The position numbers and the translations under genes are program-made. The notes below the pieces were generated by a model. It ran no database searches, was not told the DNA's origin, and worked only from the letters and a program-made list of their open reading frames with translations. A stretch of DNA of 64,000 bases from Xylophilus ampelinus (lineage in GTDB: Bacteria; Pseudomonadota; Gammaproteobacteria; Burkholderiales; Burkholderiaceae_C): positions 377,386 to 441,385 of the forward strand of contig JAQIJO010000002.1 in NCBI GenBank assembly GCA_036946225.1, in the 5' to 3' direction. Shown piece after piece: positions 31,345 to 61,586 of this stretch. Each line of letters starts with the position of its first letter. The first letter of the stretch is position 1.

Positions 31345-31373
31345 GCTTGTCTCAAGTTTTGGGAGAAATCCGC

Positions 31374-32363: not shown

Positions 32364-32456
32364 GGTTGTCTCCTTGCTGTTTCAGGCATGCGGCAGCTGA
32401 ACCAGCCTTTGCGAGGGCTGGAACAGATGCGTTGCTATCGTCGGGGCGAAGCGGCT

Positions 32457-33524: not shown

Positions 33525-33601
33525 GATGAGGATCTCCGTTGGACTATGGGTTCGATCGGTTGACCAGCTGGCCGGATCAGCGGATGGCTGGCGTTCGGAT
33601 G

Positions 33602-34015: not shown

Positions 34016-34046
34016 GTCGATTCCTTGAGTTCTCGGGTGGACGGAG

Positions 34047-36343: not shown

Positions 36344-36530
36344 GAGTAGGTAATTTTAAACATTCAAAATACCAAATCAATAGCTGAGATTGACCCTAAT
36401 GAGAGGTAGGTATATATGTATAAGTTGTTTTCCTGAGCTCTACTTCCTCAATCGTTTAGGTACATCAAACACTCAACAGTACCAAATTTTCCTATCTAGT
36501 GTCGGTGCTACGATGAGACCGAGAAACGCC

Positions 36531-39424: not shown

Positions 39425-39439
39425 GGGGTGATCGATTGC

Positions 39440-43011: not shown

Positions 43012-43082
43012 AGGACTTATTTTGCATTTTGCAAATCTAATATGCAATATATCGCAAACCCCAATCGTTTCTTGGAGATCAC

Positions 43083-44060
43083 ATGCACGCAAAGCGCCGC
43101 GTTTTTCTGCTGTCTGCCTTGGCTTCCCTGCTTGCAGCGCAGGCCGCCATGGCGGCACCCGGCTATCCGGAGCGAACGATCACCATCGTCGTGCCCTTCT
43201 CGGCGGGCGGCGGAGTCGATGCGATCGCCCGCCTGCTGGCCAATAAGCTTCGCGAATCCTTGAAGCAGTCGGTGGTGGTGGACAACCGCCCTGGCGCGAG
43301 CGGCATGCTGGGCGCCTCCTTCGTGGTGAAGGCGCCAGCCGACGGCTACACGTTGCTCATGGGATCGGCCGGCGAGACAGCGATCAACCCTTTCGTCTAC
43401 AAAGCGCGGATGCAGTACCAGCCGGCGCGTGACCTGTCGCCGATCTCGCTGGTGGTGAAGGTGCCCAACATCCTGGTCGCCAACCCGGCCCTACCCGTCA
43501 AGGACGTCGCGGAACTCGTCGCTTACGCCAAGAAGAATCCAGGCAAGCTCACCTACGCGACCAGCGGCGTGGGCAATCCGCAGCACCTGAACGGCGAGCT
43601 CTTGCAATCTCTCGCCGGCATCACGATGCAGCACGTCCCGTACAAAGGTGCATCCGGACAGCTCGTCGACGTCGCATCGGGCACCGTGGATCTCTCCTTC
43701 GTCAGCTACGCCGGCGCAGCGCCGTTCCTCAAGGGCAACCGCCTGAAGGCATTGGCCGTGACCTCGGAAAAGCGGGCCAGCTTCGCTCCGACGATCCCGG
43801 CCATCGCCGAGACCGTGCCCAAGTACAACCTGGAGAACTGGTTCGGACTGTTCGCACCCGGAGCAACGCCAGCCGCAGTCACCGCGAAGCTAGGAGCTGC
43901 GGTGCATGAGGCCCTTCGTGACCCCGCGCTCGTGAAGCAGCTCCAGGAACAAGGCGGCGAACCCGCTCCGATGACACAGGACCAGTTCCGCGAATTCATC
44001 AAGTCGCAGTCACGGCTCTACGAGCAGATCGTGGACGCCGGAAAGATCGTCGCCGAATGA
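43083..44060 (+). CDS. Bug-family (TctC-like) substrate-binding protein
   Basis: MHAKRRVFLLSALASLLAAQAAMAAPGYPERTITIVVPFSAGGGVDAIARLL. Motifs: TYATSGVGNPQHLNGELL and QHVPYKGASG. Confidence 0.9.
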   Translation: MHAKRRVFLLSALASLLAAQAAMAAPGYPERTITIVVPFSAGGGVDAIARLLANKLRESLKQSVVVDNRPGASGMLGASFVVKAPADGYTLLMGSAGETAINPFVYKARMQYQPARDLSPISLVVKVPNILVANPALPVKDVAELVAYAKKNPGKLTYATSGVGNPQHLNGELLQSLAGITMQHVPYKGASGQLVDVASGTVDLSFVSYAGAAPFLKGNRLKALAVTSEKRASFAPTIPAIAETVPKYNLENWFGLFAPGATPAAVTAKLGAAVHEALRDPALVKQLQEQGGEPAPMTQDQFREFIKSQSRLYEQIVDAGKIVAE

Positions 44061-45067
44061 AGCCGTTGCACCCAGGAGCATCCATGACCCCCGTTCTCAA
44101 GATCACCGCTCTCGTGTTCGCCGCATCTGCGGCAATGCTCCCGGCTGCTCGGGCACAGGATGCAGCGGCCAGCTACCCGAACAAGACGATCACGATCATT
44201 GTTCCGTTCGCCGCGGGCGGCAACACCGACGTGAAGACCCGTCTGGTGGCGCAGCAGCTCGGCACCGTGCTGGGCAAGACGGTGATCGTCGACAACAAGC
44301 CTGGCGCGAGCGGCAACATCGGCACCGAGATCATTTCCAAGGCCGCACCCGACGGATACACCATCGGCATGGGAAGCTTCGGGCCGCTGGCGGTGAATGG
44401 CTCCATCTACCCGAAGCTGAATTTCGATCCCCGCGGTTTGGTGCCTGTCATCCTGCTGGAAAAGAGTCCCCTCGTGCTGACTGTTTCTGCAGACAAGCCC
44501 TACCGTACCGTGGCCGATGTCGTGAAGGCGGCCAAGGCAGCGCCCGGTCATCTGAATTTCTCCAATGCCGGTCCGGGCGGCGCAGCGCACCTGGCGACGG
44601 AACTGCTCGAAAGCGCAGCGGGCATCGAGGTCGTCGGTGTTCCGTTCAAGGGGGGTGGACCGGCAGCGACCGCGCTGCTGTCGGGCCAGGTCGATGCGAT
44701 GTTCGAACAGACCTCCGCGGCATTGCCGTCCATCCAGGCCAACAAGATCCGTGCGGTCGGCGTAACGTCTTCGCAGCGGCTAGCGGCATTCCCCGGGGTG
44801 CCGACCTTCGCTGAATCCGGCTATCCGCAGGTCAACGTGTCGAACTGGATGGGGTACGTGGTGCCCAAAGGCACGCCGCCCGCCATCGTGGCCAAGCTCC
44901 ATGCGGCGTTCGCCAAGGCACTGGAGCATCCGGATGTCAAAGGACGGATCATTGCGCAGAGCAACGAGTTCGGTGGCGGGTCGCCAAAGGATTTCGGGGA
45001 CTTCATCGAATCCGAGCGGAGCAAGTGGTCCACCCTGGTGAAAGAGCGCAACATTTGTATCGACTGA
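44057..45067 (+). CDS. Bug-family (TctC-like) substrate-binding protein
   Basis: ...MTPVLKITALVFAASAAMLPAARAQDAAASYPNKTITIIVPFAAGGNTDVKTRLV. Motifs: NFSNAGPGGAAHLATELL and VGVPFKGGGP. ATG 44057 overlaps the upstream stop (ATGA); an alternative ATG lies at 44084. Confidence 0.9.
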   Translation: MKPLHPGASMTPVLKITALVFAASAAMLPAARAQDAAASYPNKTITIIVPFAAGGNTDVKTRLVAQQLGTVLGKTVIVDNKPGASGNIGTEIISKAAPDGYTIGMGSFGPLAVNGSIYPKLNFDPRGLVPVILLEKSPLVLTVSADKPYRTVADVVKAAKAAPGHLNFSNAGPGGAAHLATELLESAAGIEVVGVPFKGGGPAATALLSGQVDAMFEQTSAALPSIQANKIRAVGVTSSQRLAAFPGVPTFAESGYPQVNVSNWMGYVVPKGTPPAIVAKLHAAFAKALEHPDVKGRIIAQSNEFGGGSPKDFGDFIESERSKWSTLVKERNICID

Positions 45068-47320: not shown

Positions 47321-48103
47321 ATGGCACGCGCTACTTGCCCCACCCTCCCCCAGTTCCTTGCGCAGGCTGTCCTGCTGGTGCTCGCGATTCTGCTGATCGC
47401 TCCCAGTGCGAAGGCGCAGGACCTCGAATCAACGCTCGCCGGACTCGCACTGGGCGTCGACAGCTCCTACGCGGACAATCCCTACCGGGTGATGGGCGCG
47501 CGCCAGCGGACCCAGCCGCTCCTTTCCTACCAGAGCGAGGACCTGCGCGCGGCCCCCGACTCCTTGGACCACCGCATCCTGCGGAGCGGCTCCGCCGACC
47601 TGTGGCTACGCGCCAAGTACCGCGACGATGGCTACGACTTGGCGGACGGAGCGGGCACCGTGTCCGCGCACACGCCTCGCGGAAAAGGTCTCTGGCTCGG
47701 TGGGAGACTCATCATCCACACCGACGTCACCGACTTGCAGGCGACATTCATGCAGGGTGCTTCTTCGCAAGCCGCTGGCAATACCCTGAGCTTTCGCGCC
47801 ACGCGGGATTTCATTTGTGGCCCAGTGACCATCGCTCCGCGAATCAGCGTGACCCGGCTTTCGGCAGGGTATGTCGATCGCTTCTACGGTGTTGAGCAGC
47901 CCGACGACGAAGCGAATCGGTTCACCGCGCAATCGACTTGGACACACCAATGGGGTGTGCAGACAGCTCTCAAGCTTGATGCGCATCGAACGCTTTCGCT
48001 CGACGTCATGACCACCCAACTCGGCCGAGCCATCGCCCACAGCCCTCTAGTGGGCCGGTCCCACCTGTTCGAACTGCACCTGGGATACATCTACCGGTTT
48101 TGA
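47321..48103 (+). CDS. MipA/OmpV-family outer-membrane scaffolding protein
   Basis: Signal MARATCPTLPQFLAQAVLLVLAILLIAPSAKAQ. The body has beta-barrel-like alternating sequence and the C-terminus is ...FELHLGYIYRF, with terminal Phe. It sits directly downstream of a two-component system, which is common for MipA-family genes. Confidence 0.65.
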   Translation: MARATCPTLPQFLAQAVLLVLAILLIAPSAKAQDLESTLAGLALGVDSSYADNPYRVMGARQRTQPLLSYQSEDLRAAPDSLDHRILRSGSADLWLRAKYRDDGYDLADGAGTVSAHTPRGKGLWLGGRLIIHTDVTDLQATFMQGASSQAAGNTLSFRATRDFICGPVTIAPRISVTRLSAGYVDRFYGVEQPDDEANRFTAQSTWTHQWGVQTALKLDAHRTLSLDVMTTQLGRAIAHSPLVGRSHLFELHLGYIYRF

Positions 48104-48137
48104 ATCCAGCGTGGTGGACGATTCCGGCATCGTTCCA

Positions 48138-49025
48138 TCATCGCCAAGCCTGCGCCCACGCCTCGGCCATGGCGGGGGTGTTGAAGCAGGCGGTGTCGTG
48201 GCTCGCGGTGCAGACAGCGCGCTCGAGCAACTGAATGTCGGCTTCGTGCTGCCGTGCTACATGCACGTCCTCGAAGAAAAGCACTTTGTGGCACTGGCGA
48301 TCCAAGACCAGTTCGGCGATCTGGGCATCGCCACCGAGCGGGCCACTCTGCAGCGGTCGAACCCATTGGGTTGCGCGCGGCCATCCACGCGCCCACGCCA
48401 TTTCGTTGAGCTTGCTGCCGGTGGTGCCGGTCGCCACCCTTTCCCGCATGCTTGAGAGCAAGCTGAAATGCCGCGAAGCAAAGTCCACCATCGCGGATTT
48501 CAGGGCATCGTGGGCGATCAACGCGATCGACTGCTCCTGCGGCGCTGCGATCCCCGACGGTGGCTCTGCGCACAGCGGAACCCCCGTTAGCCGTGACCGC
48601 TCCACCGCCATCCACTCGATGGCCCCGGCCACTGTGAGCAGAAGCGGCTTCGCGTGAATGATGCACTGGCGCTTAAGCGCCTGCGCTTCCGGATAGAGCG
48701 AGGACGGGTCCAACGGATCCAACAGGTAGATCGCCCCCGCGAGCTCGTCGTCAGGGTGGATTCCTCCGGCGATCCGAGAGACCATGCGCATCACTCCACC
48801 CTCTCGGCCGTAGGGAAGGCGGCCCAAGCCATCGTAGTCCCGGAGCAGTCCAAGGGTTTCGAGTGCGTCGGCTGAACCACCCACTGCCAGGATCCCAAGC
48901 TTTGCGACCCGAATGGATTGCTCCGATTCGCGCACCCATTGCGCGAGGCCGCCATCCGGCGGTGTCCGGTGCAGGCGGTGCGCCGCGAGGCCGAACTTGC
49001 GCGACGGCAACGATGTAGACGTCAC
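48138..49025 (-). CDS. protein with two tandem methylglyoxal-synthase-like (MGS) domains: N-terminal degenerate, C-terminal canonical
   Basis: The C-terminal domain reads SIALIAHDALKSAMVDFASRH...VATGTTGSKLNE...LQSGPLGGDAQIAELV...VLFFEDVHVARQHEADIQLLERA. Compare MgsA IALVAHD / ATGTTG / SGPMGGD / PHDPDV. The N-terminal domain reads KFGLAAHR...ILAVGGSADALE...YGREGG...IYLLDPLDPSSLYPEAQALKR, the same order of blocks with key residues replaced. The proposed GTG start at 49025 overlaps the aldolase stop (GTGA). Confidence 0.65.
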   Translation of the reverse strand: MTSTSLPSRKFGLAAHRLHRTPPDGGLAQWVRESEQSIRVAKLGILAVGGSADALETLGLLRDYDGLGRLPYGREGGVMRMVSRIAGGIHPDDELAGAIYLLDPLDPSSLYPEAQALKRQCIIHAKPLLLTVAGAIEWMAVERSRLTGVPLCAEPPSGIAAPQEQSIALIAHDALKSAMVDFASRHFSLLSSMRERVATGTTGSKLNEMAWARGWPRATQWVRPLQSGPLGGDAQIAELVLDRQCHKVLFFEDVHVARQHEADIQLLERAVCTASHDTACFNTPAMAEAWAQAWR

Positions 49026-49712
49026 CAATACGCCCCGAACGTCTGCCGCAGTTCCGCAATCGATTCTTCCGCTAAAGGTGCGCATTGACCGCGCGACAAC
49101 AACCAGAGCTTTGCCGTCTCCTCGAGCTCTTCCAGGGTCGCCATCGCCTCCGACGGCGAACCGTGCCACACGTTCGGACCGAGCCGGTCGAGCATCACGG
49201 CGCGCAACGCGATCCCGCGCGCCGCGTAGCTTCCGATCAGCCGCGCCACTTCGTCGCCCACGGCAGGATCGCCCGGCCGGTGGTAGGGCACCAACGGCAC
49301 CCGGCCGACCTTCATGACGAAATACGGCGTGATCGGAGGCAGCAGCTCCCCCGCATCGACGGCTTGGCCGCGGTTCGCCAGGGTGAGCGCGACCAAGTGG
49401 GTGCTGTGGGTATGGATGACGCAACGGGCGGCGTTGCCCGCCTCCGCGCTCGCCTGGTAGATGCGGCGGTGGAGCACGATGGTCTTGCTGCCGCGCGCGC
49501 CGCCGACCTGAACGCCCTGCTCGTCGAGACGTGCGAGCGTCGCGGGATCAAGGCGGGCGAGGCAGGCGTCGGTGGGGGGTGATCAGGAAGCCGCCGCCGT
49601 CCTCGGGCGCGAGCCGCACGCTGATGTTGCCCGCCGTCGCATGGACGTAGTTGCGGGCGAAGAGGCTTTCGCCGACGCGGCAGATTTCTTCGCGGGCCTG
49701 GGTTTCGTTCAC
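49022..49712 (-). pseudogene. class II aldolase/adducin-family protein (OtnC-like decarboxylase/aldolase), reading frame broken in a G6/C6 run
   Basis: The GTG start at 49712 (GGAGAAGG upstream) gives VNETQAREEICRVGESLFARNYVHATAGNISVRLAPEDGGGFLITP, then the frame is lost at 49574-49579. With one base fewer it continues TDACLARLDPATLARLDEQGVQVGGARGSKTIVLHRRIYQASAEAGNAARCVIHTHSTHLVAL...PYHRPGDP..., a canonical class II aldolase. Confidence 0.8.
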
Positions 49713-50644
49713 TTGCCTTCTCCGACTTTCGTGATGCGGGCGGTGTTGAGGTGCTGGCGCATGAAGAGCGACGCCTCCATGCGGTCGCCCTGGACCAGCA
49801 ACTCGATCAACTGCAGGTGCTCTTCGCACTGCCGATGGAGCCGGCTGCGGTCGAGCCGGGTGCCATACTCCACGATACGCCGCATCTGGTTGACGCTGCG
49901 CAGCGCGTCCAGCACGAAACGGTTGCCGCTGCCGGCGGCGACCGTCTCGTGGAAATGGGTGCCGGCCTGAAAGAGCTGGGCGGGGGTGCATTGCTCGATG
50001 CCGCCGTCGAGCAGGTCGACCTGCTCCCGGCGGCAGCGCTCCAGCTCGGCCAGGTCCACCGCATAGCCCGGCTCCAGGATCGCCGCCGGCTCCAGCATCA
50101 TCCGGAAGCGGTAGCTCTCGCGGTGGGATTCGACCGTGGACAGGAGTTCGCGGAACATCCATCCCCGGCCCGGTTTCCGATCGATCAGGCTGTCGCGGGC
50201 CATGGTGTTGAGCAGGCGCTGAACCTGCAGCCGCGTGAGGTCGTAGCGCTCCATCAGGTCCGCTTCGGTGATCTCCTTCGCGATCAGGCCGCTGATCCGG
50301 TCGTTCGCGACCCGGAGGTACAGGTCATCCAGCGGGGGCGTGGCGTCCGACAAGTCCACTTCCGCGAGCTCCCGCGCGTCCTTCGCAAGCTGGAAACCCT
50401 TGTTCGGCTCTGACCGCACCGCGCCCGTCGACTCCAGGTACTGCAAGGCTTTGCGGACCGGGGACCGGGATACGTTCAGAGCGTCGCACAGGGATTGCTC
50501 CGTGAGCCGGGCACCGCGGGTCAGCCCGTCGCGCCGAGCCATCTCCAGGATGCGCGCGGCGAGCGTCGGAATCAGCGGACTGACGTTTCCGGGCGCGCCC
50601 GTTGGCGGTGGTTCGGCTGCAGCAGGATGGGGCATGGGAGTCAA
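49709..50644 (-). CDS. GntR-like regulator with two tandem winged-HTH modules plus an FCD-like domain
   Basis: wHTH-1: LTEQSLCDALNVSRSPVRKALQYLESTGAVRSEPNKGFQL. wHTH-2: TEADLMERYDLTRLQVQRLLNTMARDSLIDRKPGRGWMF. FCD-like: THFHETVAAGSGNRFVLDAL. The stop overlaps the aldolase GTG (GTGA). Confidence 0.75.
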   Translation of the reverse strand: MTPMPHPAAAEPPPTGAPGNVSPLIPTLAARILEMARRDGLTRGARLTEQSLCDALNVSRSPVRKALQYLESTGAVRSEPNKGFQLAKDARELAEVDLSDATPPLDDLYLRVANDRISGLIAKEITEADLMERYDLTRLQVQRLLNTMARDSLIDRKPGRGWMFRELLSTVESHRESYRFRMMLEPAAILEPGYAVDLAELERCRREQVDLLDGGIEQCTPAQLFQAGTHFHETVAAGSGNRFVLDALRSVNQMRRIVEYGTRLDRSRLHRQCEEHLQLIELLVQGDRMEASLFMRQHLNTARITKVGEGK

Positions 50645-50648
50645 TCGA

Positions 50649-51920
50649 TCAGCGGAGGAGGTCGAAAGCCTTCGTGAAGAAGTCCGTCGAACCGAAGTTC
50701 CCGGATTTCAGGGTGATGTGGAGGCTTCCGTAGGAAGCATACGGCGACTGCGCATGGCACCACGGAACCCCGGGCGCGATCTGCGGCCCGATGCGCATGC
50801 GGTCGATGTCGAGCGCTTGCACACAGGCACCGGACGTCTCGCCGCCGGCGACCACGAGTTGCCCCACGCCGCGCTCGGCGAGGCCGCGCGCGATGGCGGA
50901 CAGCGCGGCCTCGACCATGTGCCCTGCCCTTTCCACTCCGACCCTCGCCTGCACCGCGCGGACGGCGTCGGGCTCCGCCGTGGCGTAGATCAGGACCAGG
51001 CCCTCCCGCAGCTGCCGCTCCGCCCAGGACAGCGCTTCACCGACTAGGTCGGCGCCATCCGCGAGGCGCAGCGGATCGATGGCGAACGACTCGCCGCCCC
51101 GCGCCTTGAAATCGGCGACCTGGGCATTCGTTGCCACCGAGCAGCTACCCGAGACGATCGCGCGGGCGCCTGCGGCCGGGGGCAGGTCCGAAGCGCGGTC
51201 GTCCGCGCGCACCCCGAAGTTCTGCGGCAGGCCAATGGCCACGCCGGACCCCGCCGTGACCAGCGGCAGCTCAGCGAATGCCGGTCCCATCGCCATCAGG
51301 TCAGCGTTGTCGGTTGCATCGACGATTGCCATCTGCACGCCTTGTTCCCGGAGCGATGAAATACGCTTGCGAATCGCATCAGTTCCTTGGCGCACGACCG
51401 TGTGATCAATCAGTCCGACCTTCCGGGCAGTCTGCGCCTGCAGAACCCGGACCAGGTTGGAGTCGGTCATTGGTGTCAGCGGGTGGTTCCGCATGCCCGA
51501 TTCTTGCAGCAGGACGTCGCCTGCGAACAGGTAGCCTTTGAAGATGGTCCGGCCGTTCTCCGGGAAAGCCGGGCAGGCGATGGTGAAGTCAGCGCCCAGA
51601 TCGTCCATCAGCGCATCGGTCACCGGACCGATATTGCCTTCTGGCGTTGAATCGAAAGTCGAGCAATATTTGAAATAGAGCTGCCCTGCGTTTTGTTCTT
51701 TCAACCAACGTAGCGCCCCCAGGGATTGCTCGACCGCTTCGGCAGCAGGAATCGTCCGGGACTTCAATGCGATGACGACGGCATCGACGTCTTCGGTAAG
51801 GTGCCCGTCCGGCACGCCCATCGTCTGGACGACGCGCATCCCGGAACGCACGAGGTTGTTCGCGAGATCGGTCGCGCCGGTGAAATCGTCGGCGATGCAA
51901 CCCAGGTGGAGCGTGCGCAT
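50649..51920 (-). CDS. DUF1537-family four-carbon acid-sugar kinase (OtnK/DtnK/DenK-like)
   Basis: Start MRTLHLGCIADDFTGATDLANNLVRSGMRVVQ (cat 51918-51920). ...YFKYCSTFDST..GNIGPV.DAL...ACPAFPENGRTIF.GYLF....LL.ES.M.NHPLTPM.DSNL has the DDFTGA N-terminal motif and other blocks typical of DUF1537 kinases. Confidence 0.8.
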   Translation of the reverse strand: MRTLHLGCIADDFTGATDLANNLVRSGMRVVQTMGVPDGHLTEDVDAVVIALKSRTIPAAEAVEQSLGALRWLKEQNAGQLYFKYCSTFDSTPEGNIGPVTDALMDDLGADFTIACPAFPENGRTIFKGYLFAGDVLLQESGMRNHPLTPMTDSNLVRVLQAQTARKVGLIDHTVVRQGTDAIRKRISSLREQGVQMAIVDATDNADLMAMGPAFAELPLVTAGSGVAIGLPQNFGVRADDRASDLPPAAGARAIVSGSCSVATNAQVADFKARGGESFAIDPLRLADGADLVGEALSWAERQLREGLVLIYATAEPDAVRAVQARVGVERAGHMVEAALSAIARGLAERGVGQLVVAGGETSGACVQALDIDRMRIGPQIAPGVPWCHAQSPYASYGSLHITLKSGNFGSTDFFTKAFDLLR

Positions 51921-51939
51921 GGCGTGCCGGTCCTCTCGT

Positions 51940-53013
51940 TCAGACGCTGGCGACGGCCTTGGCCACTTCAGCGGCGAAGGCCTTGCAGCCCATGGTTCCG
52001 CCGATGTCGGCGGTGCGGGTCGCAGGGTTCTCGAGCACCTTGTCGACCGCAGCTTCCATCGCCTTGCCGGCCTTCTTGAGGCCTTCGTCACCGCGCTTGT
52101 CGCCCAGCCAACTGGCCATCATCGCCACCGACAGGATCATGGAGGTCGGGTTGGCCTTGTCCATGCCGGCGATGGTCGGCGCAGAGCCGTGCTGGGCCTG
52201 GGCGCAGCACAGGTCGTCGCTCGCCATGATGGAGCCCGCGAGGCCGAGACTGCCAGAGAGCTCGCTGCACAGGTCGGACAAGATGTCGCCGTAGAAGTTG
52301 GTTGCGACCAGCACATCGAAGCGCTCCGGCTCCTTGATCAGGTGTGCGGTCGACGCGTCGACCAGCAGGTCGTCGAGCTGCACCTCTGGGAAGTCCTTCG
52401 CCACGTGGCGCACGGCCTCGAGGAACAGGCCGTCGGTCATGTGGAAGCTATTCGCCTTGTGGATGGCGGTGACCTTCTTGCGGCGGGTCATGGCCAGCTC
52501 GAAGGCGCGGCGGGCTATGCGCTCGCTGCAGTGGCGGGTGATCTTGCGGGTGGACAGCGCCATGTCCGGGCTCGGCATGACTTCGCCCCAGCCGCGCGAC
52601 ATGTTGCGGTCGGGGTAGAAGCCTTCGGTCGCCTCGCGCATGATGACCAGGTCCATCGACTTGCCAGCCTTCATGTTCGATTCCAGGAAAGGCCGGGTGC
52701 GCGCCGGACGCACATTCGCGTAGAGGTCCAGGCCGATCCGGTAGGCGGCCGAGACGTTGCGCCCGCCCTTCTCCGGCGCCGGGTAATCGGCGTGCGACTG
52801 GGTGCCCAGGATGATGCCGTCGTAGGTCTTCGAGCGCTCGAGCAGCTCGTCACGGATCGTGACGCCGTACTTCTTGAGGCTGGCGAAGCCCAGGTCTTCG
52901 TAGTCGAACTGCAGGTCGAGGCCGAAGCGCTCGCCGGCGGCCTTGAGCACTTGCACGGATGCGTCGACGATCTCGGGGCCGATGCCGTCGCAGGGCAGAA
53001 CGATGAATTTCAT
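51940..53013 (-). CDS. isocitrate/isopropylmalate dehydrogenase-family dehydrogenase (paralogue of 32457..33524)
   Basis: MKFIVLPCDGIGPEIV...YANVRPARTR...MREATEGFYPDRNMSRGWGEVMPSPDMALS.RKITRHCSERIARRAFELAM.RRKKVTAIHKANSFHMTDGLFLE... contains long blocks identical to the other copy. Confidence 0.9.
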   Translation of the reverse strand: MKFIVLPCDGIGPEIVDASVQVLKAAGERFGLDLQFDYEDLGFASLKKYGVTIRDELLERSKTYDGIILGTQSHADYPAPEKGGRNVSAAYRIGLDLYANVRPARTRPFLESNMKAGKSMDLVIMREATEGFYPDRNMSRGWGEVMPSPDMALSTRKITRHCSERIARRAFELAMTRRKKVTAIHKANSFHMTDGLFLEAVRHVAKDFPEVQLDDLLVDASTAHLIKEPERFDVLVATNFYGDILSDLCSELSGSLGLAGSIMASDDLCCAQAQHGSAPTIAGMDKANPTSMILSVAMMASWLGDKRGDEGLKKAGKAMEAAVDKVLENPATRTADIGGTMGCKAFAAEVAKAVASV

Positions 53014-53054
53014 GAGGAACTCCGGTAGGTTGGCAGATTGACGAAGGGCAAGAG

Positions 53055-53768
53055 TCAGGTCGACTCGACGGATTTCTTGAGCGAGCGGACTGCGCTATCG
53101 GGGCTGCTCAGGACGGGTACAGAAAGGTCGGCGGCCACGCGTTCGCGCATATGGGCGGTGGAGAACTGGCCGAGCATCACGATGTCGCATCCTCGGAGCT
53201 CGCGGGCAGCTGCCAGCACCTGTGCATCGTGATCAGCAGGACGGCCTTGCGACAAGGCTTCCAGGGCGCCAGCAGGGCACTCGACATGAAGCGTGAAATC
53301 GATGCCCCGTTTGCCAGCGATTGCTTCCAGTTCGTGGCGCATGCTGGCGACGGACGCTGCGAAGGTCGAGATCATTCCGATGCGACCCGGTCGACCTAGA
53401 CCGGCGCAGACATCCAAAGCCTCTTCGAACATGGCTTCGTTCGGTTTGAGCGTCGGCACGCCTGCCGAAGCGCCTGCAGCCTCGATCGCCGGGCCGAAGG
53501 CCGAGCATGTGAACAGGATCCCAACCGCGCCGGATTGCACCGCATAACGCGCCAGTGCGATGAATCGTTCTGTCAATGCCTCGTCGATCCAGCCAGCAGC
53601 AGAAAGGTCTGGCGACAGGCTGTCATCCAGCAAATCCATACGCACGGCCTCCGGCCAGAGCTGCTTGAAGGCCTTCCTCACAGGCTCCATCGCAAGCGGC
53701 GTGGCATGTATCAAAGCAATCCTTGATTCATTCATTGGTAGATTTTTGCTCATAGGGTTGGCACTCAT
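53055..53768 (-). CDS. Asp/Glu/hydantoin racemase superfamily protein (arylmalonate-decarboxylase/maleate-isomerase-like)
   Basis: ...RIALIHATPLAMEPVRKAF...AVGILFTCSAFGPAIEAA......PTLKPNEAMFE...IGMISTFA.....CDIVMLGQFS shows the two-lobed Asp/Glu-racemase pattern with Cys in the TCSAF block. The start is uncertain (53768 or 53735). Confidence 0.65.
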   Translation of the reverse strand: MSANPMSKNLPMNESRIALIHATPLAMEPVRKAFKQLWPEAVRMDLLDDSLSPDLSAAGWIDEALTERFIALARYAVQSGAVGILFTCSAFGPAIEAAGASAGVPTLKPNEAMFEEALDVCAGLGRPGRIGMISTFAASVASMRHELEAIAGKRGIDFTLHVECPAGALEALSQGRPADHDAQVLAAARELRGCDIVMLGQFSTAHMRERVAADLSVPVLSSPDSAVRSLKKSVEST

Positions 53769-53832
53769 TGTACTTATAAATCTTTAAATACAATCAGGGA
53801 ATCCACCGAACTGGTGCAATCCTGGAGACGAC

Positions 53833-54834
53833 ATGGCATTCGGACAACATTTCTTCTTTCGCACTGCTTGTGCTCTGACCACTGGCGCAGTGCTCTCATC
53901 AAGCGCATTCGCCCAGGCTGCGAGTAGCGACTACCCGTCCAAGCCCATCACGTTCGTCGTACCCTACGCGGCAGGCGGTAGCTCCGATACGCGCTCACGG
54001 CAGATCGGAAACAAGCTGGCGATCGCCTTCGGCCAGCCAGTGATCGTCGAGAACCGCCTCGGCGCCGGTGGGAACATCGGCACCGACTACATCGCCAAGG
54101 CCAAGCCTGACGGCTACGTCATCGGGCTGGGCAATTTCGCGCCCCTAGCGGTCAACAAGGCGCTCTTCCCGAAGCTGAGCTACGACCCGGCTACGGACCT
54201 GGTCCCCGTCGTCATGATTGAGAAGGGACCGCTGGTGTTGTCCGTGGGCCGCAACTCGCCCTACAAGACAGTCCAGGATGTGGTCGCCGCCGCCAAAGCG
54301 AAGCCCGATACCGTGACCTTCGCCTCGGGCGGTCTGGGCGGATCCCATCACTTGGCCGGCGAACTGTTCGAAGAGCGGGCCGGCATCAAGATGACCCATG
54401 TCCCCTACAAGGGCGGTGCGCCCGCGGGCAACGACCTGATCGCCGGCAACGTGGACGTGATGTTCGAATGGATCTTCGCGGTCATGCCCTACGTGGGCGG
54501 CTCAGCCCCCAAGATGCGTCCCCTGGCCATCACCAGCCCGCAGCGTTCGCCGCTGCTCAAGGACGTGCCGACCTTCGACGAGCTCGGGATCAAGGGCATG
54601 GAGATCTCCAACTGGTTCGGGGTGGTCGCACCCAAGGGCACTCCACCACAAATCGTTGCAAAGCTCAACGCTGCCATCAACGAAGCCTTGAAGGATCCGG
54701 AAATCGTCAAGGCGATTACTTCGCTCGGCGACGAGGTGGTCGGCGGCACGCCCGAACAGTTCGGCGCCTTCATCAAGTCGGAGTCCGCGCGGTGGTCGCA
54801 GCTCGTCAAGAGCCACAACATCAAGCCCGAGTGA
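53833..54834 (+). CDS. Bug-family (TctC-like) substrate-binding protein
   Basis: MAFGQHFFFRTACALTTGAVLSSSAFAQAASSDYPSKPITFVVPYAAGGSSDTRSRQI. Motifs: TFASGGLGGSHHLAGELF and THVPYKGGAP. Confidence 0.9.
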   Translation: MAFGQHFFFRTACALTTGAVLSSSAFAQAASSDYPSKPITFVVPYAAGGSSDTRSRQIGNKLAIAFGQPVIVENRLGAGGNIGTDYIAKAKPDGYVIGLGNFAPLAVNKALFPKLSYDPATDLVPVVMIEKGPLVLSVGRNSPYKTVQDVVAAAKAKPDTVTFASGGLGGSHHLAGELFEERAGIKMTHVPYKGGAPAGNDLIAGNVDVMFEWIFAVMPYVGGSAPKMRPLAITSPQRSPLLKDVPTFDELGIKGMEISNWFGVVAPKGTPPQIVAKLNAAINEALKDPEIVKAITSLGDEVVGGTPEQFGAFIKSESARWSQLVKSHNIKPE

Positions 54835-54858
54835 ACGAACTTTCGGACGCAGACCATC

Positions 54859-55839
54859 ATGATCAGCAGCAATCTCACGCGCCGCGCACTCTTCGTTCTG
54901 ACGGCTGCGCTCGCAGGCTCTGTCGCCAACGCACAGCAACCAGCGTATCCCACCAAGCCAGTGCGCTTGATCGTCCCGTTCGCAGCGGGTGGACCCAACG
55001 ACGTGATGGCGCGGGTGCTCGCGAAGCGGCTCACCACCGACACCGGCCAATCCTTCGTCGTCGACAACAAGCCAGGGGCCGGAGGCATCATCGGAACCGA
55101 AGCAGTGGCCAAAGCTGCGCCTGATGGCCACACACTCGGCTTCATCAGCGCACCGTTCACCATGACGCCTGCATTGCAAGCCAAGATGCCGTTCGATACC
55201 GACAGGGATCTGGTGCCGATCGCCAAGGTCGCGGAATCACCGATGGTCGTGATGGTCCCCTCGACATCCCGTTTCAAAACCGCCAAGGATCTGCTCGACT
55301 TCGCGCGCAAGAATCCCGAGAAAGTCACTTACGGATCGGGCGGGGTGGGCAGCACGCCGCACCTCACGACAGAACTGTTGGGATCCGTGGTCGGTGCGAA
55401 GTTCCTCCACGTCCCTTACAAGGGAGGCGGCGAATCGATCAAGGCGCTGATGGGCGGGGAGATCGACCTCCTCATCGACAGCATCACCAGCACGGGCGCG
55501 GCCTTCGCGTCCGGCCGTATCCGCGGGCTGGCGATCGGCCAGTCTAAGCGTGCTCCCCAGCTGCCCGAGGTGCCGACTTTCGACGAAGCCGGGCTCCAGA
55601 ATTTCAAGGTGGAGCACTGGGTTGGCATCGTCGCGACCGGCAAGACGCCACAGCCGATCCTCGACGCCCTGCATGCGCAAGTGGAGAAGGCGCTCCGGAG
55701 CCAGGAAGTCAATCAGAAGTTCGAAGAGCTCGGGGCGCACACCGTCTCCGATACCCCGGCTCAGTTCAAGAAATTCATCGGCGATGAACTCACCAAATGG
55801 CGACAGTTGGTCAAGAGCGCAAAGATCCAGCCTCAATGA
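54859..55839 (+). CDS. Bug-family (TctC-like) substrate-binding protein
   Basis: MISSNLTRRALFVLTAALAGSVANAQQPAYPTKPVRLIVPFAAGGPNDVMARVL. Motifs: TYGSGGVGSTPHLTTELL and LHVPYKGGGE. Confidence 0.9.
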   Translation: MISSNLTRRALFVLTAALAGSVANAQQPAYPTKPVRLIVPFAAGGPNDVMARVLAKRLTTDTGQSFVVDNKPGAGGIIGTEAVAKAAPDGHTLGFISAPFTMTPALQAKMPFDTDRDLVPIAKVAESPMVVMVPSTSRFKTAKDLLDFARKNPEKVTYGSGGVGSTPHLTTELLGSVVGAKFLHVPYKGGGESIKALMGGEIDLLIDSITSTGAAFASGRIRGLAIGQSKRAPQLPEVPTFDEAGLQNFKVEHWVGIVATGKTPQPILDALHAQVEKALRSQEVNQKFEELGAHTVSDTPAQFKKFIGDELTKWRQLVKSAKIQPQ

Positions 55840-56729
55840 GCGCGACATCGATAGCGTCTCGCAGTTGCGACGCCCATGTGCATGTCTTCGATCCTGCACG
55901 ATTTCCGTATGCGTCGCCGAGACGCTTCACTCCCGGACGTGCGGATGTCGCTGAACTGCTAGCCCATCTCCGCAGTATCGATGCCGGTCGGGTGGTGCTG
56001 GTGCAGCCGAGCGTCTACGGTCATGACCACCGATGCTTGGTCGATGCCTTGACCCAACTGCAAGGAATGGCGCGCGGCATCGCGGTCATCGGCCCGCAAA
56101 CCAGCGACGAGGAAATCGCTCTGCTGAATACCGTCGGCGTTCGTGGCGCACGGCTCAACTTGGTCGTCGACGGCATCGCGGACCTGGACTTCGCTCGAGA
56201 GGCGATTGCTCGCTTATCGGATCGGATCCCGGTCGAGTGGCATATCCAGTTGCATGTGGGCCTCGATCTAGTACGAGGGATTGCCGATGAGCTGATGGCG
56301 AACACTCGTCACTTCGTGCTGGATCATTTCGGACTTCCCAAAGACGATCGTCGCGACGCTGCTGCGGAACTGCGATCGTTGACCGACCTGATGCGAGCGG
56401 GGAAATTAACCGTAAAGCTTTCCGCACCGTATCTATGCATTGCTCAAAGCGAGGATCCCTCGACATTGGAGCCTCTAGTTGCGCACCTTTGCCGGATTAA
56501 TCCGCGTGCAGTAGTCTGGGGGACGAACTGGCCTCATACGCAAGGCACGGCGAGGAGCGAGTCCTCTCCGATCGACAAGATCGAGCCGTTCCGCGATGTC
56601 GACGATGCCTCGTGGCTGCAGTTGTGCCGCTCATGGCTCCACCGTCTCGCACTGCCCGCTTCAACGTTCGACGACAACTCTACCCGCCTCTATGGATTCG
56701 AACCATCCGCCGCTGGCAAGTCTGCATAA
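55836..56729 (+). CDS. amidohydrolase_2, LigI-like (paralogue of 35414..36343)
   Basis: MSATSIASRSCDAHVHVFDPARFPYASPRRFTPGRADVAELL...RVVLVQPSVYGHDHRCLV...LDHFG...WGTNWPH. ATG 55836 overlaps the upstream Bug stop (ATGA). Confidence 0.8.
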   Translation: MSATSIASRSCDAHVHVFDPARFPYASPRRFTPGRADVAELLAHLRSIDAGRVVLVQPSVYGHDHRCLVDALTQLQGMARGIAVIGPQTSDEEIALLNTVGVRGARLNLVVDGIADLDFAREAIARLSDRIPVEWHIQLHVGLDLVRGIADELMANTRHFVLDHFGLPKDDRRDAAAELRSLTDLMRAGKLTVKLSAPYLCIAQSEDPSTLEPLVAHLCRINPRAVVWGTNWPHTQGTARSESSPIDKIEPFRDVDDASWLQLCRSWLHRLALPASTFDDNSTRLYGFEPSAAGKSA

Positions 56730-56877: not shown

Positions 56878-57140
56878 ATGAAACGTTCACGTCAAGCAAA
56901 GATCATCGCCCCCTTGGGTCCCGCTAGCTCCGATCTGGAAGCTGTGAGATCGCTTTTCGATGCAAGTGCGGATGTGTTCCGGCTGAATTTCAGCCACGCA
57001 CTCCACGGGCAGCAAAAAGCCCGCATGTAAATCATCCGTGCGGTGGAACAAGGGCGTGGCCGGCCAATCGCAGTTCTAATCGCCCTGCAAGGCCCGAAGC
57101 TTCGGATCGGCACTTTGCAAAGCGAACTCGACATCGAACA
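56878..57140 (+). pseudogene. pyruvate kinase N-terminal remnant with an in-frame TAA
   Basis: MKRSRQAKIIAPLGPASSDLEAVRSLFDASADVFRLNFSHALHGQQKARM, then TAA (57028-57030), then IIRAVEQGRGRPIAVLIALQGPKLRIG. This matches the first ~80 aa of Pyk (KIxxTxGPAS...DVFRLNFSHG...DLQGPKxR). Similarity is lost after ~57140 and the next gene is on the opposite strand. Confidence 0.7.
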
Positions 57141-57226
57141 AGACCGAGTCCAGACATATACGGCAAAACGGTTGGGCACGGTACGACAGACTACTGGTAA
57201 AAACAGCGATCTACGTATTGGGTCAA

Positions 57227-58189
57227 TCAAAATCGCGCCTTGAGTCGGTCGTAGGCATAGGTTCCGAAGAGTCGATTCGCTGCTGGAGTGAAATACACGG
57301 GATCGGCGAACAAGTAGGAATCGTAGGCTAGGCCGGATGCTATCGTCGAGGTCGTGCATAGAGCAGAATTCACCTGACCGCTCCCAATGCCTAGGCCATC
57401 ACCAACATCCGTCGATGTACACACCACCGTTGTGCTGTCGACAAGGCTGTAGCTGGCCGGAGAATTGATCAAGAGGTTGAAGTAATAGGCCGAATCGACG
57501 TACAGGACGTTCGAGGCGAGGTCGCTGATGGCGAGCAGCAATGCCGTGTTGAATGCTGCCGCGGCAGAGGTAATGATGGATGCTTCATTCGGCAGTTTTG
57601 ACGCCCATGGCGATGAGCCGAGATAATAGGTTCCTGTCACCACCACGTATTTGGCTCCTGCGGTGACGAGTCGGCGCACCTGCGCACCCAGCTCCGTGCC
57701 AGCTTGGGTGAGCGCCGCCGAGAACTGCGAGCTATTGATGGTGCCTTGCGTATACCGCTGGTGGTTGTAGATGACATGGCTAATCCCTCCCTGCACCAGC
57801 GCAACATCAGATGCGCCGAACGCGCTGGTGGCCAGAAAGTTCGAGATTTGCTCGGTGACGGTGGGAGTGTCGGCATTCCCGGAGGCGTCTGGTTTGCCGG
57901 TGACACGGGCGTTGCCGACGGCGAATCCGCTGCCGCCGTTCGCAGAGGCACTGATCGCGACCCCATAGCTTGAGGCCAGTTGCTGGACCCACACGTTAAC
58001 GGTTCCGTCGTTGACGGTGTAGCGACTCCCCTTATTCCCCAGGTCGCTCAATCCGTCTCCGAATGCGATGAATCGGGAAGGGGTTATGGCGGATTCGACA
58101 GTGCTCGACCCGCACGCGATCAGCGCTGAAGAAACAATTGAAGCGCCTGTGGTGGCGAGGAATGCGCGGCGTGACCAGTCTGGGGCCAT
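57227..58189 (-). CDS. SGNH/GDSL-family esterase/lipase, predicted Tat-exported lipoprotein
   Basis: N-terminus MAPDWSRRAFLATTGASIVSSALIACGSS has the Tat motif SRRAFL and the lipobox LIAC. Block I is FIAFGDGLSDLGN, the GDSL motif with a catalytic Ser. Later blocks include ...GG..V... and FADPVYFTPAANRL, a degenerate version of the expected DxxH block. Confidence 0.8.
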   Translation of the reverse strand: MAPDWSRRAFLATTGASIVSSALIACGSSTVESAITPSRFIAFGDGLSDLGNKGSRYTVNDGTVNVWVQQLASSYGVAISASANGGSGFAVGNARVTGKPDASGNADTPTVTEQISNFLATSAFGASDVALVQGGISHVIYNHQRYTQGTINSSQFSAALTQAGTELGAQVRRLVTAGAKYVVVTGTYYLGSSPWASKLPNEASIITSAAAAFNTALLLAISDLASNVLYVDSAYYFNLLINSPASYSLVDSTTVVCTSTDVGDGLGIGSGQVNSALCTTSTIASGLAYDSYLFADPVYFTPAANRLFGTYAYDRLKARF

Positions 58190-60361: not shown

Positions 60362-60629
60362 GACTGGTTTTTTTGCTATTAAAGCAGCTCGTACACATTC
60401 GCGCGAGATCATTCATTGGAAGATAAGCTGCCGCGTCGACTCACCAAGAATACCTGGGTATTCCCCATCAACACCTCCGCATGAGGCTTTCTCTTTATCC
60501 GTGTAGGATTCTCGGGACGCAGGATGAGTCGATAGGACACACAAAATCGCATGGTCATGTATGTTCCGTCCTGATGCGAGGTCGAGAGCGAAAGCTCGCG
60601 AAGCCGGACACGTCGTAAATGCTGGATTT

Positions 60630-61586
60630 TCAAATTGCCAGACCGACAACTATGGTGCCGTTGTAGCCGTTTATGGCGTCGCCGGACAGGACGGGCGTTT
60701 GGGCGGCGATTTGAGCGGCTGTGTTGTCGCCGAAAACGTTGTCGCTTGCCAAAGTGACCCGAGCCAAGTTGGCACTGCTACCTGCATAGAGCGAGCTGTT
60801 CGCGTTGTAGACAGCCACGCACGCGTCGCGAGGCATGCACATTTGCGAAGTCAGAAGCGAGTTCGAACCTTGCGTCGCGGTGTTGGCGCTTCGATAGATC
60901 TCGAAATGGATATGCGGATAACGCCCATCGTAGGCTGCCGGAAAATTCGTCGAGAACGTCACCTGGCCTGCCGCATCCGTCACCTGCACACCGCGCAAGT
61001 AGTTTTCCAACGGAAGGTCGTACAGGGAATACTTTCCTGTAGCGTTGCAATGCCAGAGATAGATTGCGTATCCGGACAATGCCGCGCAGGATGCATTCGT
61101 GTCGACCAGGGTTATTGCCAACTTCAATGGCACCCCAACGGCCGTCGTGGTGGAGATTCCGAAACTTTTCCGGATGTCGCTGCGCACGATCCCGCTGGCC
61201 ACCAATACGTTGGCGACGCTGCCGTGTGCACTGTTCGTGCCGTCGGCCGGATAGGGGCCCGCCGTTTCTCGTGGATCGGCGATGCAGCCGGTGCTCGACG
61301 AATTCGAAGTCGCGGTTGACGAAGTCGCTGCGCTGGTCGCCGTCGACGATGCCGAGCTGCCAGACGATGTCGTGCTGGATGTGGTGGATGTCGTGGCAGT
61401 CTCGCTCCCCCCTCCGCCGCACCCGGGCAACAGGACAGCGCCGCCGATGCCGGCGAGCAAACTGAGCACGCGACGGCGTTCGAGTGACTGCCACACCATC
61501 TGCTCAGCCAACGCGGACAAGTCGCGCTGCAACCCGTGGTCGTGTTCGTGCATCCGTGTGAAGGAGTGCCGTGATGAAGTCTGCAT
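60630..61586 (-). CDS. intradiol-dioxygenase-fold (protocatechuate-dioxygenase-like beta-sandwich) protein, predicted Tat lipoprotein with a Ser/Thr-rich linker
   Basis: ERRRVLSLLAGIGGAVLLPGCGG carries an RR motif and a lipobox. A 45-aa S/T-rich linker follows (SETATTSTTSSTTSSGSSASSTATSAATSSTATSNSSSTG, nt 61284-61418). The domain then reads PRETAGPYPADG...VPLKLAITLVD......GYAIYLWHCNATGKYS...GVQVTDAAGQVTFSTNFPAAYDGRYPHIHFEI. The start may be 61586 or 61499. Confidence 0.7.
   Translation of the reverse strand: MQTSSRHSFTRMHEHDHGLQRDLSALAEQMVWQSLERRRVLSLLAGIGGAVLLPGCGGGGSETATTSTTSSTTSSGSSASSTATSAATSSTATSNSSSTGCIADPRETAGPYPADGTNSAHGSVANVLVASGIVRSDIRKSFGISTTTAVGVPLKLAITLVDTNASCAALSGYAIYLWHCNATGKYSLYDLPLENYLRGVQVTDAAGQVTFSTNFPAAYDGRYPHIHFEIYRSANTATQGSNSLLTSQMCMPRDACVAVYNANSSLYAGSSANLARVTLASDNVFGDNTAAQIAAQTPVLSGDAINGYNGTIVVGLAI

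Follow-up and report, generated by a model that had tools for sequence, protein, structure and literature searches.

A conserved, uncharacterized variant of the OtnK/OtnC pathway in Xylophilus ampelinus and other bacteria

Introduction

Within a stretch of 64,000 nucleotides from Xylophilus ampelinus (hereafter the window), an operon on the minus strand at positions 48138 to 53768 encodes a DUF1537 kinase and a class II aldolase-fold protein together with a dehydrogenase of the isocitrate/isopropylmalate dehydrogenase (IDH/IPMDH) family, a racemase-fold protein, a regulator, and a methylglyoxal synthase (MGS) (Table 1). This locus is a real, conserved, and uncharacterized variant of the known OtnK/OtnC pathway. 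The catabolism of tetronates through DUF1537 kinases was elucidated in 2016, and new front ends to it are still appearing (2024, 2026). We propose, with about even confidence, that the operon serves the catabolism of a hydroxy acid, in which the established OtnK/OtnC end is fed by front steps that fall to enzymes new to the pathway.

The cluster is widespread in soil, freshwater, and plant-associated bacteria of the Burkholderiales type, Xylophilus included, and in Pantoea, and the degree to which its dehydrogenase is conserved is unusual. Working out the pathway would give functions to a large subfamily of IDH/IPMDH enzymes, to a racemase-fold family, and to a LigI-like, probable lactonase, and would probably name a plant-derived carbon source of these bacteria.

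Results and discussion

The kinase and the decarboxylase

The kinase has the two-domain architecture (SBD_N and NBD_C) of the DUF1537 family, with scores of 266.8 bits on PF07005 and 155 bits on PF17042, and reaches 643.6 bits on NF043035, the equivalog model for 3-oxo-tetronate kinase (cutoff 350). It stays below the cutoffs of the sister models for D-threonate kinase (135.7, cutoff 450) and for the 3-oxo-isoapionate kinase OiaK (154.3, cutoff 700). The closest structures in the PDB are 5dmh (4e-139), 1yzy (HI1011), and 3dqq, with E values ranging from 1e-108 to 1e-139, and the DUF1537 chains 4xfm and 4xfr match weakly (~1e-16). On sequence grounds, the kinase is clearly assignable as a 3-oxo-tetronate kinase, OtnK, and not as DtnK or DenK.

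The Aldolase_II gene adjoins that for OtnK, and the order OtnK, (GntR), OtnC is kept across clusters. In the window, it is broken into two open reading frames (49548–49712 and 49022–49477), each of which matches PF00596; the cause is a +1 frameshift from one extra base in a G6 homopolymer at 49574–49579 (plus strand). Without the extra base, the gene encodes a protein of 229 amino acids that is colinear with the intact 229-residue orthologues of strain NCPPB 2930 and of a metagenome-assembled genome (MAG) of Xylophilus sp. Because the window matches a MAG of X. ampelinus, to which its proteins are 100% identical, a true lesion and a sequencing error are indistinguishable, and a homopolymer error is no less likely than a genuine pseudogene. 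After repair, the protein reaches 219.9 bits over the full length of NF043034, which is by far its best family match and is under the cutoff of 250; an intact orthologue (L003, 220 bits) and the protein of a MAG locus (L013, 209.9 bits) likewise score below it. The fold is of the Aldolase_II (3-OtnC) type and not F_bP_aldolase, the fold of the 2-OtnC that serves a three-step route (PMC12540250). That 2-OtnK/2-OtnC route was considered for this locus and rejected, as the decarboxylase has the wrong fold.

Because of the equivalog score of the kinase and the Aldolase_II-type decarboxylase, the final two steps are almost certainly the predicted conversions of 3-oxo-tetronate to 3-oxo-tetronate 4-phosphate and of the latter to dihydroxyacetone phosphate (DHAP) and CO2. 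Given these identities, DHAP is most likely the end product, as a preliminary description of the window had also held.

Conservation and variants of the cluster

One genome per species was scanned with an alignment of the racemase-fold protein, and metagenome searches, plasmid searches, and exact look-ups were added. The operon is kept in at least 10 genera of Burkholderiales and in Pantoea, and because the same gene order recurs in many genera, the arrangement is not due to chance. The layout of the window, in which genes for the amidohydrolase, Bug protein B, and Bug protein A diverge from those for the racemase-fold protein, the IPMDH-like dehydrogenase, OtnK, GntR, OtnC, and MGS, is shared by Acidovorax sp. 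CF316 and Variovorax sp. PvP013, and the full MGS-bearing variant is also present in a Hydrogenophaga MAG, a Burkholderiaceae MAG, and several metagenomic contigs. The GntR regulator holds the same operon position in orthologous clusters. The cluster occurs without MGS in Polaromonas sp. CF318 (with an aldehyde dehydrogenase gene after otnC), Limnohabitans, Caenimonas, and Comamonas sp. Tr-654. Piscinibacter sakaiensis has the order GntR, IPMDH-like, OtnK, OtnC, TctC, TctB, TctA, racemase-fold, and Ramlibacter humi has the IPMDH-like, OtnK, OtnC, and GntR genes only. On a plasmid of the gammaproteobacterium Pantoea agglomerans, genes for DeoR, SLC13, OtnC, and OtnK diverge from those for the IPMDH-like enzyme, the racemase-fold protein, the amidohydrolase, MFS, a solute-binding-protein (SBP)-like protein, and AcnA. 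Paraburkholderia sabiae adds DctA, a porin, pyruvate kinase, and a GapN-like dehydrogenase, and at L013 a gene of the short-chain dehydrogenase/reductase (SDR) type takes the IPMDH slot beside the racemase-fold, OtnK, and OtnC genes.

The transporters that accompany the module differ by genome and include the tripartite tricarboxylate transporter (TTT)/Bug, TctCBA, DctA, SLC13, MFS, or TRAP types. The end of the cluster also varies, being occupied by MGS, by a GapN-like aldehyde dehydrogenase with pyruvate kinase (Paraburkholderia sabiae), by an aldehyde dehydrogenase (Polaromonas), or by nothing. The functions encoded there all serve the disposal of triose-level compounds, and their alternation points to a triose-phosphate product, with MGS as an optional overflow device. 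The combination of genes, which the preliminary description did not recognize as a described pathway, is thus a conserved one for which no describing publication was found in the literature searched, and the records of the Prokaryotic Genome Annotation Pipeline that were examined name the upstream enzymes at family level. On the Paraburkholderia sabiae plasmid (L169, 13683–19020), four transposase genes directly follow otnK and no OtnC is annotated; that cluster appears to be disrupted by insertion sequence (IS) elements.

The enzymes upstream of the kinase

In the four-step pathway for L-threonate or D-erythronate, OtnK and OtnC are preceded by LtnD or DenD and by OtnI (Zhang et al. 2016; E. 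coli ygbJKLM; summarised in PMC12540250 and PMC12994016). The present cluster shares with it the OtnK clade, the Aldolase_II-type OtnC, and the expected product DHAP. Its front end is different, in that the NAD_binding_2 dehydrogenase and OtnI give way to an IDH/IPMDH-family dehydrogenase, a one-cysteine racemase-fold protein, and a LigI-like, probable lactonase, uptake is of the TTT/Bug type, and the regulator gene lies inside the operon. Neither a canonical LtnD/DenD (NAD_binding_2) nor an OtnI (AP_endonuc_2/Hyi-like) was found among the nine cluster genes of the window or in the related loci examined; an NAD_binding_2 gene was seen once, beside the L027 cluster, and its score on the model for L-threonate dehydrogenase is 162.7, below the cutoff of 350. 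There is precedent for such an exchange in Ltn3D, an SDR-type L-threonate 3-dehydrogenase that bypasses LtnD and OtnI in Paracoccus litorisediminis (Watanabe et al. 2026, PMC12994016), where the front end of the OtnK/OtnC route is likewise supplied by another dehydrogenase family and OtnI is dropped. Ltn3D differs from the enzyme described here in being an SDR that acts on monocarboxylic sugar acids, whereas the latter belongs to a family of beta-decarboxylating dehydrogenases and is accompanied by dicarboxylate-type transporters.

The IPMDH-like enzyme falls below every NCBIfam equivalog cutoff (LeuB, Icd, HICDH, tartrate dehydrogenase), with its best score on the LEU3_arch subfamily (279, cutoff 410) and others on PRK08997 IDH (252, cutoff 510), LeuB (238, cutoff 353), and TTC (214, cutoff 470). 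Its best 120 database relatives bear family-level names only. Across genera, the protein is 83–94% identical, compared with 50–80% for its cluster neighbours. The motifs YR..LYANVRP, MREATEGFY, HKAN, LVDAS, and GDILSDL align with those of the IDH 6ltf; the Arg, Tyr, Lys, and Asp residues in them presumably belong to the conserved substrate and metal residues of the family, namely three Arg, a Tyr, a Lys, and three Asp, of which the three Arg bind the two carboxylates of the substrate. Polar residues (R-N-V-S) occupy the positions that presumably correspond to those through which IDH reads the substituent, S113 and N115 in E. coli IDH. Because canonical LtnD, DenD, and OtnI are absent from the clusters examined, because the Ramlibacter humi operon pairs this enzyme with OtnK and OtnC, and because an SDR replaces it at L013, the IPMDH-like enzyme is most likely to precede the kinase and to produce an oxo-tetronate.

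The racemase-fold protein has no close or informative sequence match in the PDB. Its AlphaFold2 model (pLDDT 92.7) matches Asp/Glu/allantoin racemases and arylmalonate decarboxylase in Foldseek, with TM scores of 0.6–0.7 and 11–19% identity, as a distant member of the superfamily. The conserved Cys88 aligns with Cys79 of allantoin racemase (3qvj), and the position of the second catalytic cysteine (Cys184) is taken by Gln201, which is invariant in 16 racemase-fold homologues. Because the first cysteine is kept and the second replaced by an invariant Gln, the protein is predicted not to work as a racemase of the classical two-base kind. An active site with one acid/base fits enediolate isomerisation, stereospecific protonation, or a decarboxylation of the arylmalonate decarboxylase type, and with such an active site the isomerase slot to which the preliminary description assigned the protein is plausible. 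The family is large (>6000 matches at E ≤ 1e-5), and about 70 of 80 genome loci that carry a member lack OtnK. Many of these OtnK-less loci (L014, L016–L022, L028, and others; for instance L018:10004–12846) have genes for the racemase-fold protein, an Ldh_2-family dehydrogenase, and then a Bug protein. The Ldh_2 genes there find their best matches, below cutoff, in L-sulfolactate and ureidoglycolate dehydrogenases, and this three-gene unit also appears to be uncharacterized.

The nearest relative of the amidohydrolase in the PDB is LigI (4dia, 2e-27), with 4mup also matched, and the protein is probably a lactonase. Its gene is linked to the IPMDH-like and racemase-fold genes in Burkholderia, Paraburkholderia, Pantoea, Pigmentiphaga, and Comamonadaceae, and accompanies them even at loci without OtnK/OtnC. 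Orthologues of Bug protein A (54–80% identity) stand in the same position in most Comamonadaceae clusters, and Bug protein B is a neighbour kept in related clusters. Bug protein A matches only proteins that bind terephthalate, adipate, Asp or Glu, and other ligands, all at a similar level, which gives no clue to its ligand.

A proposed pathway

From these assignments we infer, as follows, how the upstream steps are ordered, what chemistry their three enzymes perform, and which substrate they use. Uptake of the acid or its lactone would fall to a TTT system that has two Bug binding proteins. The LigI-like amidohydrolase would open the lactone, and in many genomes it has as a neighbour a PF10282 beta-propeller that likewise carries a lactonase annotation. 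The IDH/IPMDH-family enzyme would then oxidise, and most probably oxidatively decarboxylate, a C5H8O7 hydroxy-dicarboxylate to an oxo-tetronate, the candidates being 2-(hydroxymethyl)tartrate, a 2-carboxy-tetronate, or a pentarate. The one-cysteine racemase-fold enzyme, acting through an enediolate, would convert 2-oxo- to 3-oxo-tetronate (the role of OtnI) or set the configuration at C2, and OtnK followed by OtnC would complete the route to DHAP. A di- or tricarboxylate substrate is favoured because of the transporter types and the retained motifs presumed to bind dicarboxylates, and the formula C5H8O7 is suggested by carbon and oxygen bookkeeping, one CO2 being lost at the dehydrogenase and one at OtnC. 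Our best guess at the substrate is a C5 hydroxy-dicarboxylate or its lactone. Hydroxycitrate, itatartarate, and 2-carboxy-pentonate were also considered as precursors of 3-oxo-tetronate and rejected, as the same bookkeeping gives no C4 3-oxo acid with a free CH2OH.

Taken together with the beta-propeller, SBP-like protein, and aconitase encoded nearby, the locus may specify an undescribed pathway for a hydroxy di- or tricarboxylic acid of plant or oxidative origin, with oxidative decarboxylation by the IDH/IPMDH-family enzyme and enediolate isomerisation by the racemase-fold protein; we place this fuller reading slightly short of even. The substrate may then be a branched breakdown product of ascorbate or its lactone. 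If true, this would mean new activities for three enzyme families, a new entry into the OtnK/OtnC route, and a route common to several plant-associated bacteria (Xylophilus, Pantoea, leaf and root isolates).

Several points weigh against the proposal, beginning with the guessed nature of the substrate. A 3-substituted malate is turned into a 2-oxo acid by canonical IDH/IPMDH chemistry, and with that chemistry only 2-(hydroxymethyl)tartrate would yield an oxo-tetronate. We know of no natural source of this compound. For the other two C5 candidates, binding of the PdxA type would be required, of which the conserved Arg triad gives no sign. The strong association with an AcnA-type aconitase finds no explanation in the scheme and hints at an isocitrate-like substrate. 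The racemase-fold protein may be a substrate epimerase and not an analogue of OtnI, because its family mostly occurs with Ldh_2 and Bug genes elsewhere and because it is missing from the Ramlibacter humi cluster. A longer substrate may also be used, since OtnK and OtnC accept C5/C6 3-oxo acids in vitro, and the score of OtnC is slightly below the equivalog cutoff.

Alternative explanations

A plain tetronate pathway would retain more of the known route. The lactonase would open threono- or erythrono-1,4-lactone, the IPMDH-like enzyme would oxidise C2 of the (2R)-tetronates L-threonate and D-erythronate without decarboxylation, in a reaction likened to that of tartrate dehydrogenase on L-tartrate, and the racemase-fold protein would be an OtnI analogue ahead of OtnK and OtnC. 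The four slots of the canonical route (dehydrogenase, isomerase, kinase, decarboxylase) are all filled, as they are by the SDR, racemase-fold protein, OtnK, and OtnC of L013; a 1,2-proton shift is within the scope of a one-base active site, many of the hosts are plant-associated, and ascorbate breakdown yields threonate. We nonetheless consider this pathway unlikely, as the transporters elsewhere are of dicarboxylate or tricarboxylate type (DctA, SLC13, TctCBA), the motifs around all three conserved Arg, which in this family bind the two carboxylates of the substrate, are visible in the alignment, the proposed isomerase is missing from Ramlibacter humi, and the links to aconitase and the beta-propeller are left unexplained. 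Alternatively, two pathways could share one locus. The aconitase, IPMDH-like enzyme, racemase-fold protein, and lactonase would degrade a plant acid of isocitrate, hydroxycitrate, or tartrate type to a central 2-oxo acid, and OtnK and OtnC would serve a separate tetronate substrate under shared regulation. Ralstonia solanacearum has only the aconitase and the IPMDH-like gene (78% identical), and loci in Burkholderia sp. S171 and Pigmentiphaga carry the dehydrogenase and amidohydrolase (with the racemase-fold gene as well in S171) and no OtnK. The polar residues at the positions that presumably read the substituent, as in E. coli IDH, and the pyruvate kinase of the Paraburkholderia sabiae cluster, which has a counterpart in the tartrate (ttu) operon of Agrobacterium vitis, point the same way. 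We regard such a split as quite unlikely, in that Ramlibacter, Piscinibacter, Caenimonas, and Comamonas have the IPMDH-like, OtnK, and OtnC genes in one tight operon, overlapping or 8–60 bp apart, and OtnK could receive its substrate from no other enzyme encoded there.

A variant of the L-ascorbate pathway of Cupriavidus necator, acting on C6 plant compounds derived from 2,3-diketogulonate, would run from 2-carboxy-L-pentonate through 3-oxo-pentonate to tetrulose 4-phosphate, with the beta-propeller and amidohydrolase providing 2-carboxy-L-pentonate, the IPMDH-like enzyme replacing PdxA in the oxidative decarboxylation, and OtnK and OtnC finishing. The C. necator pathway reportedly employs a protein of WD40-like fold, an amidohydrolase, and a decarboxylase of the PdxA family, so that a beta-propeller, a lactonase of the amidohydrolase superfamily, a decarboxylating dehydrogenase of the IDH/PdxA superfamily, and Bug uptake would be common to both systems; the exit differs (OtnK/OtnC here, reportedly L-lyxonate there), the dehydrogenase here is of IPMDH type, and the racemase-fold protein and aconitase have no counterpart there. 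The PF10282 and Amidohydro_2 proteins are regular neighbours of the cluster, and OtnK and OtnC take longer 3-oxo acids in vitro. Moreover, plants naturally make 2-carboxy-L-pentonate and its two epimeric lactones (PMC11066805), and Xylophilus, Ralstonia, Pantoea, and leaf and root isolates are among the hosts. The kinase is, however, very close to C4-specific OtnKs, MGS, GapN, and pyruvate kinase point to triose phosphates and not to tetrulose phosphate, and the carbinol to be oxidised would lack the alpha-carboxylate of IDH/IPMDH substrates. We rate this variant as improbable, by a hair more so than the split locus. The least probable reading, and a very improbable one, is that of the preliminary description, in which the kinase would act on a tetronate, the IPMDH-family enzyme would take the place of PdxA2 on the phosphate ester to give DHAP, and MGS would be the integral last step. 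PdxA2 acts on the tetronate 4-phosphates made by DtnK or DenK from D-threonate or D-erythronate; that system resembles the present one in pairing a DUF1537 kinase with an enzyme of the fold shared by IDH/IPMDH and PdxA and in ending at DHAP, and the MGS start overlaps the otnC stop in loci of the Xylophilus group. The kinase here belongs to another clade, which largely refutes the proposal, and the dehydrogenase is a PF00180 and not a PF04166 protein. OtnC is present, conserved, and assigned the decarboxylation, and the operon of Ramlibacter humi puts the dehydrogenase upstream of the kinase. The place of MGS as a last step is also at odds with its distribution, to which we now turn: long MGS genes are mostly found away from the cluster, the MGS tree shows the in-cluster copies in scattered positions, and about half of the clusters have none.

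A tandem methylglyoxal synthase

The MGS protein comprises 295 amino acids, compared with about 130–150 expected for a single domain. Its C-terminal half (about residues 163–289) scores 94.8 bits on NF003559 (cutoff 84) and matches 2xw6 in the PDB (8e-16); on TIGR00160, the protein reaches 81.4 bits (cutoff 146.9). The AlphaFold model (pLDDT 92) has a Foldseek TM score of 0.86 to MGS structures. H172, D173, and K176, T199, T201, and T202, G231, G232, and D233, and H260..D263 in this half are invariant in 20 homologues, and we take their counterparts in E. coli MGS to be His19, Asp20, Lys23, Thr45/47/48, Gly66, Asp71, His98, and Asp101. A profile of the N-terminal half matches only MGS chains in the PDB, nearly over their full length (1wo8, 1.8e-4; 6phe, 7.6e-4), and the catalytic positions in it are replaced. 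Direct profile comparison of the two halves gives a weak match (E 0.008 over 25 columns) that is in register. The protein is thus predicted to combine a degenerate N-terminal domain with a catalytically complete C-terminal one, and the tandem MGS-like architecture read earlier from the window is borne out by the two sets of matches. Compared with MgsA, the C-terminal domain keeps the His/Asp/Lys residues, the TGTTG phosphate loop, GGD, and the His..Asp motif; the differences are the length of 295 residues in two domains, the dead N-terminal copy, a conserved 9-residue Trp-rich insert in the active half, and membership of a Comamonadaceae family that is mostly encoded by a stand-alone gene.

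The long MGS family has 1732 matches, all of about 290 amino acids among the matches listed, and its members are labelled methylglyoxal synthase by the sources in Variovorax, Polaromonas, Rhodoferax, and Acidovorax. Context was counted over all loci with a near-full-length match, of which 22 were not evaluable. The gene follows otnC in 13 of the 69 evaluable loci and lies elsewhere, with varied neighbours, in the other 56; in a complete Variovorax genome, for example, it sits between genes for a methyltransferase and a glutathione S-transferase (GST). In metagenomic loci, it clearly follows otnC in 4 of 80, with one further incomplete case. In-cluster and stand-alone copies are interspersed in a neighbour-joining tree, and about half of the cluster instances have no MGS. 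These genomic contexts argue that MGS is not obligatorily tied to the operon, of which it is an accessory, optional rather than core member, and they weaken the DHAP-to-methylglyoxal link that the preliminary description had made a defining feature and that is its least supported claim. Insertion of the cluster beside a resident mgs gene was considered and rejected, as comparison of the stand-alone and in-cluster Variovorax loci revealed no synteny past the mgs gene itself. The tandem MGS would be the ordinary mgs gene of the lineage, placed at the 3' end of the operon in some lineages as an overflow valve for DHAP.

As a separate small curiosity, the genes called methylglyoxal synthase in the Comamonadaceae sampled encode two-domain proteins of about 290 residues with a dead N-terminal MGS copy. 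The tandem form appears to be common, and possibly standard, for MGS in this family of bacteria, and no description of the architecture was found in the literature searched.

Layout of the locus and its surroundings

Open reading frame listing and Pfam/NCBIfam scans place six minus-strand and three divergent plus-strand genes where the preliminary description had them and in the families it gave. The two four-nucleotide GTGA overlaps that it reported are present, one between the gntR stop and the otnC start (49709–49712) and one between the otnC stop and the mgs start (49022–49025), as is the frameshift in the class II aldolase gene. Its extent for the system, 48138–53768, holds for the operon and falls short of the whole, which reaches beyond to the beta-propeller, SBP-like, and aconitase genes and to a paralogous second set. 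The remaining spacers of the operon are short, with 19 nt between the IPMDH-like and OtnK genes in the window. An annotated homologue of 226 amino acids implies a start near 53735 for the racemase-fold gene, and the kinase frame spans 50649–52091 (minus strand) with a conserved probable start, MRTLHLG, at 51920. A promoter and terminator scan of 47900–54000 gave nothing above shuffled sequences.

Table 1. Positions in the window of the operon, its divergent genes, and the neighbouring operons
Feature	Positions	Strand	Match or remark
Long (tandem) methylglyoxal synthase, 295 aa	48138-49025	-	NF003559
OtnC-like class II aldolase-fold decarboxylase (predicted), frameshifted	49022-49712	-	PF00596 on both fragments
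GntR/FCD regulator, inside operon	49709-50644	-	PF00392 + PF07729
OtnK, predicted 3-oxo-tetronate kinase (DUF1537)	50649-51920	-	SBD_N + NBD_C, NF043035
IDH/IPMDH-family NAD(P)-dependent beta-hydroxyacid dehydrogenase	51940-53013	-	PF00180, 276 bits
Asp/Glu-racemase-fold protein	53055-53768	-	PF01177, 53 bits, E 5e-14
TctC/Bug periplasmic carboxylate-binding protein A, divergent	53833-54834	+	PF03401
TctC/Bug binding protein B, divergent	54859-55839	+	PF03401
LigI-like Amidohydro_2 protein	55797-56729	+	PF04909
Two further Bug genes, divergent from aconitase operon	43083-45067	+	
AcnA-type aconitase	40363-43158	-	
GntR/FCD gene after aconitase	39440-40366	-	
SBP_bac_3-like protein, 244 aa	38690-39424	-	no NCBIfam match
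Seven-bladed beta-propeller 'lactonase'	37614-38693	-	PF10282
GntR gene, divergent from paralogous set	36390-37418	+	
Paralogous set: Bug, Bug, second IDH/IPMDH, cupin, aldehyde dehydrogenase, second Amidohydro_2	30355-36343	-	

The accessory operon at 37614–43158 lies 5 kb from the otnK cluster. Elsewhere its genes are found closer: the PF10282 beta-propeller is directly beside the cluster in at least 8 loci, an SBP_bac_3-like protein of about 245 residues and an AcnA-type aconitase with its own GntR recur next to it, and at L012 an aconitase 69% identical to that of the window is 2 kb away. On Ralstonia solanacearum megaplasmids, an aconitase of the same 69% identity diverges from the IPMDH-like gene; 102 records of this species hold the 78% identical dehydrogenase, with the aconitase and dehydrogenase only. 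In the paralogous set, the second IDH/IPMDH is 75% identical to the first, the second Amidohydro_2 protein (LigI-like) is 40% identical to its counterpart, and the aldehyde dehydrogenase is of the succinate-semialdehyde type. A comparable group adjoins the cluster in Comamonas sp. Tr-654 (L177), comprising genes for an amidohydrolase, MFS, a cupin, one TctC, a second Iso_dh, and an aldehyde dehydrogenase. The region from 30 to 57 kb is an island of related organic-acid catabolism.

TctC/Bug genes are very dense at 20620–45067 and 53833–55839 of the window, with at least 7 in 35 kb (at 21681, 30355, 31374, 43083, 44057, 53833, and 54859), and the parts of the window that were scanned showed no TctA/TctB membrane genes. 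Downstream of the amidohydrolase gene, three open reading frames without a Pfam match (155, 320, and 252 amino acids, at 56892–58189 and 60561–61319) flank a type II secretion secretin (58367–60412). On the other side of the island, an integrase-core (rve) frame of 237 amino acids (28854–29567), apparently a truncated IS transposase, lies beside a gene for an HpcH/HpaI aldolase or citrate-lyase-like protein (27906–28715), and a 711-residue NHL-repeat beta-propeller protein with teneurin-NHL-like and SGL-like repeats is encoded at 24870–27005.

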